From positions 230,549 through 294,548 of IMG/VR virus record IMGVR_UViG_3300028591_000073: DNA of 64,000 bases; one strand, 5' to 3'. How positions within the stretch are numbered: the stretch's first letter is position 1; every line of letters begins with the position of its first letter. Shown here piece after piece: positions 1,165-42,421 of the stretch. Below the pieces are notes generated by a model that was given only the letters and a program-made list of their open reading frames with translations, ran no database searches and was not told where the DNA came from. The DNA comes from a virus. Taxonomy: Duplodnaviria > Caudoviricetes. A program made the position numbers and the translations under genes.

Positions 1165-1255
1165 TGGCAATACAAGAAAAACAACTCCCGAATGGAAGGA
1201 GTTGCTTGCACAATATAATAGAGACGCGAATGGAACGTCTCATTACTTCACATCA

Positions 1256-1447
1256 TTAGTGCAATGGGATTGGTGTGAAGTTTTTAGACTCCGGATGAGT
1301 CCAATCAACAAACCAAACATTTCCGTATCCGGAATACTTTGGTTCGAGCGGACTTATCACAGAATTGGTAGCAGTTGATGTTGTCACATTTTTGAGTTCC
1401 TGCGACTTCTTTTCAACTGCTGCCTTTGCATAAGCAACCATGTCCAT
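1256..1447 (-). CDS. 63-aa early peptide, paralogue of 41856..42044
   Basis: SD AAGGAGGTGA precedes ATG 1447 (MDMVAYAK...). The C-terminus ISPLEPKYSGYGNVWFVDWTHPESKNFTPIPLH is conserved with 41856..42044. Confidence 0.8.
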   Translation of the reverse strand: MDMVAYAKAAVEKKSQELKNVTTSTATNSVISPLEPKYSGYGNVWFVDWTHPESKNFTPIPLH

Positions 1448-1511
1448 ATTATTCACCTCCTTTTCATATATTTTGATGAATGCAATCATGGACATCAAAC
1501 CTTTCAAATGT

Positions 1512-1570
1512 ATTTGATATATTTCTATATCAAATAAATCATATCTATATGAAAAGAAAGAATAATAGAA
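1512..1570 (-). promoter_or_regulatory. Putative phage early promoter with downstream hairpin (copy 1)
   Basis: Minus strand reads TTCTATTATTCTTTCTTTTCA-TATAGATATGATTTATTTGATATA-GAAA-TATATCAA, with the same spacing as the other copies. Confidence 0.7.
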
Positions 1571-1590
1571 CGGGGCCATATGGCCCCGTT
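1569..1590. terminator. CATATG-centred GC palindrome (probable intrinsic terminator)
   Basis: AACGGGGCCATATGGCCCCGTT lies just past the stop of the SbcC-like gene. Confidence 0.7.
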
Positions 1591-19127: not shown

Positions 19128-19670
19128 ATGGCAAAAATAATCAATGAAGACAACCTCAGTGCAGGTGTAACACAGTACGATGGCAACCGTGTTGATGTTA
19201 TGGCAGAAGTTGCCAAACAGCAGTATCGCACTGCTTCTGATGAATTGCATAAAGCAATTTATGCAATGGAGATGTTCAACATCTTCATGGAGCAGCAGAT
19301 GCATGCCGGCCTCGATGTATTTGATGGCGGAAGCCATTGTACATTAAAAGGTGGGTATGATGGTCCCTGGTACTTCGACCCCACCAGACCAGAGACAGTA
19401 CGTCTCTCCACACAGGGTGGTGAAGGACCGGATGTGACAATATCCGAACTCAAGTGCTTTTCCGCACACTGGGCTTACAAAACGAGCGGAGGGGAAGCAA
19501 TCATCTGGCTTACGGCATATCCAGATGAGGATTTCCCGGACCACATCATCTTCGAAATCGAAGAGGAATTCGAAGATGAATATGGTGAACCGAATCACTT
19601 CGGAACCAGTGACTCTGATATGTTCCATAACGGAACATTTGACCCGTCGAAGGTCTCCGGCATCATCTGA
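19128..19670 (+). CDS. Acidic early protein
   Basis: 180 aa, SD AAAGGAGG. Confidence 0.75.
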   Translation: MAKIINEDNLSAGVTQYDGNRVDVMAEVAKQQYRTASDELHKAIYAMEMFNIFMEQQMHAGLDVFDGGSHCTLKGGYDGPWYFDPTRPETVRLSTQGGEGPDVTISELKCFSAHWAYKTSGGEAIIWLTAYPDEDFPDHIIFEIEEEFEDEYGEPNHFGTSDSDMFHNGTFDPSKVSGII

Positions 19671-41770: not shown

Positions 41771-41827
41771 TTCTATTATTTTAATTTTTCATATGTATAT
41801 TATTTATATGATATAGAAATATATCAA
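41771..41827 (+). promoter_or_regulatory. Putative early promoter plus hairpin (copy 5)
   Basis: TTCTATTATTTTAATTTTTCA-TATGTATATTATTTATATGATATA-GAAA-TATATCAA. Confidence 0.72.
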
Positions 41828-41855
41828 TCATATTATATGAAAGGAGTTGTTCATA

Positions 41856-42044
41856 ATGAACAATCAAAATTCCATTATCAATAAAAAAGCGGCCGGTAAC
41901 ACTCAAAAACCGACCGCCAAAACACCCGACTCACGGATTGCTCCGTTGAGTCCACTATATTCCGGATACAGTAATGTCTGGTTTGTTGACTGGACGCATC
42001 CGGATGCTGCCCGCTTTATACCACTTCCAAACAAAATAAAGTGA
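41856..42044 (+). CDS. 62-aa early peptide, paralogue of 1256..1447
   Basis: SD AAAGGAG; core IAPLSPLYSGYSNVWFVDWTHPDAARFIPLP. Confidence 0.8.
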   Translation: MNNQNSIINKKAAGNTQKPTAKTPDSRIAPLSPLYSGYSNVWFVDWTHPDAARFIPLPNKIK

Positions 42045-42073: not shown

Positions 42074-42421
42074 ATGTTTATTGATAATGAATTCATGCGT
42101 GAGCATTCTAATGATGCTTATGCCAGAATGCAAGAGGTACTTCGCGCACTGGCATATTATGTCCAGCGTGACTACTTCATTTATGACCCTGAAGCAATTG
42201 GCCGGGAGCTTCAGGTAATGCTTGCTTACCGGTACTCACCGTCATATTCCGAGATCACACTCGGAATACAAGATAATGATATCTTTGTCCTATTGGCCTC
42301 GGCATGGAGGCTGATGGGAATCCCGGATTCCGAATTAGTATCCGAGTGGAATCCGGGAATGTATGTTAAATTAGCCAAGTGGGTTTACGACTGGGCCCAC
42401 TTGACATTCTTCCGCTTCTAG
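42074..42421 (+). CDS. Hypothetical early protein
   Basis: SD AAGGAGGTG before MFIDNE. Confidence 0.7.
   Translation: MFIDNEFMREHSNDAYARMQEVLRALAYYVQRDYFIYDPEAIGRELQVMLAYRYSPSYSEITLGIQDNDIFVLLASAWRLMGIPDSELVSEWNPGMYVKLAKWVYDWAHLTFFRF

Follow-up and report, generated by a model that had tools for sequence, protein, structure and literature searches.

The early promoters of phage AR9 have been mapped experimentally and consist of a 13-nt AT-rich core, six further bases and a G at +1 (Lavysh et al. 2017, PMC5312081). In T4-type phages, small non-essential ORFans are flanked by PeSL modules composed of a terminator hairpin and early promoter repeats, and these modules serve as the sites at which recombination replaces one gene by another (Arbiol et al. 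2010, PMC2839356). In archaeal viruses, anti-defence functions are over-represented among genes that come first after a strong early promoter (PMC11065993), and in phiKZ the mRNAs made earliest code for factors that bind ribosomes (PMC10914614). Small early ORFans are numerous in jumbo phages and are presumed to serve host takeover or anti-defence, but almost none has been characterised; a 2026 review (PMC13282480) lists Tad1 alone. Here we describe two copies, A and B, of a gene family that is selected, duplicated, accessory and short enough for synthesis, and that we regard as a well-supported candidate for a host-takeover or anti-defence factor. The protein family is undescribed, but objects of this kind, small early ORFans within promoter/terminator cassettes that undergo shuffling, are already known.

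The window, the 64,000-nt stretch that we analysed, comprises the final 64 kb of a complete virus record of 294,548 nt (294.5 kb; GC content, 37.6%). Because the genome encodes split multisubunit RNA polymerase (RNAP) subunits, an SbcC-like protein and a tubulin, its gene content identifies it as an AR9/phiKZ-like jumbo phage; the closest cultured matches of the RNAP subunits, at 26-30% identity, are in jumbo phages of Bacillus, Listeria and Staphylococcus. Strong AGGAGG sites suggest a Bacillota host, and a host search with one phage gene found nothing. A tblastn search for chimallin with phiKZ gp54 gave no match in the genome, an insensitive test that likewise missed the gp55 RNAP. The source samples of related phages include STEW19, which we take to be a cattle-rumen set.

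An earlier, sequence-only reading of the window had pointed to two small ORFs about 40 kb apart on opposite strands, and both are present as described (Table 1). Searches by tblastn and profile found exactly two copies in the complete genome, the next match having an E value of 0.05. A and B, separated by 40.4 kb, match each other at E=4e-14 with 49% identity across 51 aa. A is monocistronic and follows the sbcC-like gene near the tubulin gene, and B is the first gene of an operon and lies divergent to an RNAP subunit gene 300 nt away. Start codon, Shine-Dalgarno (SD) site, frame and stop codon of the ORFs are kept at all loci compared. Gene callers often lengthen A to 77-111 aa; we favour the 63-aa start because of its strong SD site and its alignment with relatives. 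The upstream ATG of A lies 14 codons before this start, at the same distance from +1 as the start of B, and its frame and ATG are kept in L012, L013, L050, L051 and the divergent L017, so that a dual start giving 77- and 63-aa products is possible. Strong protein constraint on the 14-codon extension is unlikely given one E-to-F change in L050.

Table 1. Features of copies A and B and their surroundings, in window coordinates
Feature	Position	Strand	Remarks
Intrinsic terminator of A	1172..1204	-	Right crossover point of the swap
Extra 3′-UTR hairpin of A	1221..1241	-	Same 9-nt loop as the terminator
Copy A ORF, 63 aa	1256..1447	-	Predicted helix 3-20, Thr/Ser linker, conserved core 31-61 (window 1265-1357)
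Strong SD site of A	1454..1462	-	From sequence; kept in L012, L013, L017
Possible second in-frame start of A	1487..1505	-	ATG 1489, weaker SD 1500-1505; putative 77-aa isoform
Predicted 5′-terminal RNA hairpin of A	1516..1531	-	6-bp stem, GAAA loop; begins at predicted +1 G (1531)
AR9-type early (virion RNAP) promoter core of A	1538..1550	-	6 nt before predicted +1; PWM 57.7
Palindromic terminator hairpin of upstream sbcC-like gene	1570..1589	.	z -4.9; left crossover point of the swap
AR9-type early promoter core of B	41791..41803	+	PWM 57.7; conserved in L001-L011, L015, L016
Predicted 5′-terminal RNA hairpin of B	41810..41825	+	Begins at predicted +1 G (41810)
SD site of B	41839..41846	+	Ahead of the copy B ORF
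Copy B ORF, 62 aa, pI 10	41856..42044	+	Fast-evolving N-tail, conserved core 28-58 (window 41937-42029)
115-aa gene, second in early operon	42074..42421	+	Always 3′ of copy B; no family match

We searched 5.8 billion proteins, looked up clusters and ran an exhaustive HMMER search over 1.84 billion representatives. This yielded about 20 distinct homologues, all from close metagenomic relatives: nine B-type proteins at 69-90% identity, 11 A-type cluster entries at 94-100% (an 11-member cluster at 90%) and two divergent members. P0021 occupies the B site, divergent to the RNAP gene and ahead of a homologue of the 115-aa gene, and P0022 the A site following sbcC; their contigs share 76-77% identity with this genome, and 11 of the first 13 residues of P0022 are identical to A. 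Both copies are therefore also present in phages ∼76% identical, and the paralogues are old. L017 carries an A orthologue at 58% identity, and A types group together in the protein tree (support, 0.92). The YSGYxNVWFVDWTHP segment that had been called invariant is so between the two window copies only: in the family, Y39 can be F or I, V can be I, and T can be A, R or N. Residues I31, P33, P36, Y38, S39, G40, N43, F46, D48, W49, H51, F57 and P59 do not vary. No longer protein with the motif turned up among the 5.8 billion or the 1.84 billion proteins, which argues against a pseudogene remnant of a larger protein. Two long matches from the 1.84-billion search (P0023 and P0024) were rejected as sums of weak repeats. 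Pfam, PHROGs, NCBIfam, PADLOC, PDB sequences and GenBank phages and plasmids gave no significant match, and the family, which the first reading had not recognised, is undescribed.

We also examined selection on the two paralogues. For the core, dN/dS was 0.10-0.28 in comparisons between B alleles and 0-0.18 in those between A alleles, whereas the B N-tail was near neutral (0.76-0.93) and the A N-part constrained (0.09-0.51). Over the 15-codon inner core, A and B differ at pS 0.35 versus pN 0.04 (Fisher p=0.015), and in all six deep pairs pS was well above pN (Fisher p, 0.002-0.09); overlapping reading frames are closed. The synonymous codon differences quoted earlier between A and B are correct, and the proposed conservation at the protein level is borne out by purifying selection on the core together with synonymous change at invariant residues. 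The ∼30-residue core under purifying selection (dN/dS mostly 0-0.3) indicates a real protein. The N-halves had been described as unrelated and of low complexity; the second label is too simple for A, whose N-half is a conserved predicted helix. The data give no support to pure dosage amplification, as once proposed: A and B are paralogues of long standing whose N-termini are under different constraint, and one is monocistronic while the other heads an operon.

In the same genome pairs, dS was 0.09-0.10 for the RNAP gene and 0.43-0.66 for the B core, and by these distances the B alleles are older or more exchanged than the neighbouring RNAP gene. Such an excess of divergence over an adjacent gene is what a conflict locus subject to exchange should show. 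The divergent B- and A-type cores of L016 and L017 share N-I-W and P-I-Y-S-G, changes present in neither window copy. These shared changes hint at gene conversion or co-adaptation. Quartet sites for concerted evolution of the A and B cores numbered 4-5 by lineage versus 2-4 by paralogue, on contigs from different samples.

The family is accessory and clade-restricted. A related genome (G002; RNAP, 84% and SbcC, 72% identical) spans both syntenic sites and has neither A nor B, nor the B early operon, and in more distant phages other early genes occupy the site after sbcC. In two distant relatives (L026 and L028, 6660-8789), the genes after sbcC are tandem and, judged by eye, resemble BspA-type leucine-rich repeats. 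A 38-aa ORF with a strong SD site and the same promoter subtype lies at the A-syntenic site after sbcC in another (L024:6690-6806); it has a 7-residue look-alike of the core and was rejected as a homologue because its score was at shuffle level (996/5000). Within the window, an acidic 180-aa protein of the early island (19128-19670) has a weak look-alike of the core, G-Y...W-Y-F-D-P-T-R-P (E value, 0.19), and no Pfam match.

Both genes carry the AR9-type arrangement of core, 6 nt and G at the predicted +1, with top scores on a PWM derived from this genome (shuffled-genome maximum, 0.4), and this match to the mapped AR9 consensus (PMC5312081) supports the early timing proposed before. About 23 such promoters were found in the genome, and most are followed by a stem-loop that opens with the predicted +1 G; the stem-loops differ in sequence but still pair (for example, those of A and B and one at about 18019). 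As the hairpin begins at the predicted +1, it would form the 5′ end of the mRNA, which it probably protects. The quoted 19-mer has seven exact sites in the genome, or nine allowing one mismatch, and hence marks the promoter class and not A and B. Of the near-identical promoter with a shared hairpin, what stands is that both are first genes behind it; the hairpin is not specific to the peptide. Judged by its distribution, it is general to early transcripts and indicates the early class of A and B, nothing further. About 90 nt upstream of position 1012 in L012, the A 5′ hairpin appears as its reverse complement with an inverted loop, which is explained either by an error of assembly or by the sequence between the palindrome arms having been inverted locally. 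No late-promoter consensus could be derived, and a candidate antisense late-promoter site behind the genes is not conserved in B alleles.

The surroundings of A differ among relatives. A follows sbcC in the window, L012, L051 and the divergent L017, and in L013, L014 and L050 the whole A unit is located at the site equivalent to G000 211134-211790, which in this genome holds an early 174-aa gene. Two stretches common to both sites contain the swap junctions, an upstream hairpin of 20 bp and a terminator of 33 bp; the 33-bp sequence occurs at just one further place in the genome (G000 211768). With its promoter, gene and terminator, copy A forms a self-contained cassette that is moved or copied by recombination between short shared hairpins. 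The replaced 174-aa gene (L052:334-855; G000 211233-211757) encodes an HExxH motif and weakly matches Peptidase_M78/IrrE (E value, 0.008). The tandem 3′ hairpins of A (window 1182-1241) have a common 9-nt loop, also found in three other terminators of the genome, and L012 has an identical C-to-T change in each of the two loops.

AlphaFold modelled the A-type protein with a helix (residues 3-20), a beta-hairpin (38-47) and a short helix (52-56) at pLDDT 61, with the highest confidence at the WFVDW-HP segment. The isolated core reached pLDDT 58, no confident fold alone, consistent with the linear-motif character proposed for it. The alignment contains just 15 sequences, and this shallow depth, rather than disorder, may be why pLDDT is low. 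Fold searches of this model in PDB, VIA-wide, BFVD and Atlas gave no match, which means little because the model is of low confidence, and a homo-tetramer prediction of the core gave no answer (score, 0.02). The proteins contain no Cys, signal peptide, TM stretch or catalytic motif. Their net charge of 0 (A) to +5 (B) and pI of 6.7-10 rule out an acidic DNA-mimic inhibitor such as Ocr, Ugi or p56.

Taken together, we give about even chances to the reading that A and B are accessory, immediate-early inhibitors of a host protein that fold on binding. On infection, the virion-packed multisubunit RNA polymerase would transcribe both from the AR9-type early promoters, and each mRNA would carry a protective 5′ hairpin and a strong SD site, so that the protein would be made at once and in quantity. 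The functional unit would be the ∼30-residue Pro/aromatic C-terminal core (I-x-P-x-x-P-x-Y-S-G ... N-V-W-F-V-D-W-x-H-P ... F-x-P), probably unstructured alone and folding to a beta-hairpin and short helix on a cytoplasmic host protein, which would be blocked or redirected stoichiometrically. We infer a host partner, either a defence protein or part of the Bacillota gene-expression machinery, from absence in a close relative, allele turnover and precedent; this absence, in G002, suggests that the phage's own core machinery does not need the family. The paralogues would present the same core on different N-terminal tails, a conserved helix in A and a drifting basic tail in B. About 20 further unknown genes share the early position, which by itself indicates no specific function. 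More doubtful is a stronger version, in which this ∼30-residue fold-on-binding motif represents a new minimal inhibitor class directed at a conserved Bacillota defence or gene-expression complex, with sub-functionalised paralogues and concertedly evolving cores in a shuffled cassette.

We consider it unlikely that the peptide is instead made early as a cofactor for machinery of the phage itself (assembly of the non-virion RNAP, replication or PhuZ) and binds through its core. The RNAP neighbour of B, the sbcC/tubulin neighbourhood of A and the constant core with variable tails would suit such a role, but a phage as close as G002 does without both copies at both sites, A is able to occupy an unrelated site, and variation among B alleles far exceeds that of RNAP. 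It is quite unlikely that the family is a small nucleic-acid binder, a mini beta-sheet like the integrase Arm-type or AP2 domains, regulating early promoters or RNA. B is basic, Trp and Tyr are exposed, and in ESM Atlas feature space the family has Arm-DNA-bind_4 and Integrase_DNA clusters as neighbours at 0.78-0.79; however, Atlas scores below 0.9 with 56-63 shared features are at chance level by calibration, PF14657 has no match on the genome even at E 10, A is net neutral, the conserved residues are aromatic or Pro rather than basic, and the protein is too short for a third strand and helix. An inner-membrane-surface peptide, anchored by its Trp/Phe/Tyr cluster and blocking a receptor or transporter in superinfection exclusion, would agree with early timing and with the mildly amphipathic A-type N-helix (moment, 0.3-0.4), but appears improbable for a sequence with no TM or signal stretch (maximum hydrophobicity of a 15-mer, 0.28-0.41; GRAVY, -0.4 to -0.65).

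Very improbable is a lone, self-assembling beta-propeller blade (NHL/YWTD-like) or WW-like mini-domain. The core does have the P-x8-G-x-hydrophobic4-D blade register and a 19-aa match to propeller-like proteins of Fimbriiglobus, but the cores score only -1.7 to 1.4 bits against a small 7-segment blade profile, a level equalled by 4-136 of 500 shuffles and by 123 of 5436 genome windows, the hhalign probability is 1.5%, the blade Gly is Ser in most B alleles, and no fold match was found. The Fimbriiglobus matches were rejected as homologues, being a blade resemblance that is not significant against the 7-sequence profile. A leader/core precursor of a RiPP or a class IIa-like bacteriocin is hardly credible, although a variable N-part precedes a conserved C-part, the G-x7-D spacing is like that of lasso cores, and Y-G-N-V/V-D-W is similar to pediocin boxes. 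Class IIa bacteriocins are marked by a YGNGV box, a disulfide and a GG leader. The complete genome lacks radical SAM (PF04055), Asn-synthase/lasso cyclase (PF00733) and Bacteriocin_II (PF01721) matches, whereas the controls matched; host enzymes could supply such modifications, but the peptide has no Cys, GG leader or -2 Thr, its Gly is Ser in B, and no modifying enzyme or exporter lies adjacent, so the processed peptide once suggested finds no footing here. Conservation at the RNA or DNA level, or descent from a larger gene, has next to no chance and is already largely refuted: a stretch of the core folds into a small hairpin in A, but synonymous changes disrupt it in B, L016 and L017, dN/dS is below 1, no longer relative exists in either protein set, and Rfam gave no match at gathering level.

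If the stronger version, a new minimal inhibitor class, is true, the family would rank with the first anti-defence families known in AR9-like jumbo phages; as it stands it is one among many unknown early genes, a good candidate and not a demonstrated new system. Like the early host-takeover proteins typified by phiKZ014, A and B are small, predicted to be encoded by the earliest transcripts and free of recognisable domains (PMC10914614), but they share no sequence or structure similarity with it, are confined to a narrow clade and are duplicated. With the early-promoter-linked Acr and anti-TA genes (PMC11065993) they share the first position behind a strong conserved motif, accessory occurrence and variable alleles; that work concerned archaeal viruses, however, and A and B gave no match to a described anti-defence family in the searches above. 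Their promoter is of the AR9/PBS1 type, with the same 13-nt AT-rich core, 6-nt spacer and +1 G in a phage with split multisubunit RNAP genes, but here most early transcripts begin with a stem-loop at +1, as judged from predicted start sites. As in PeSLs, A is flanked by repeated terminator and early promoter modules and the replacement breakpoints lie inside them. In contrast to PeSLs, the A promoter is AR9-type and would be read by the phage's own RNAP, not by sigma-70 (a scan for the host sigma-70 promoter of strict PeSLs gave at best 9/12 matches near the A promoter), and a whole transcription unit replaced another via both the upstream and the downstream terminator. Copy A provides a clean, base-resolved case in which a phage that encodes its own RNA polymerase has exchanged a whole cassette through terminator hairpins.
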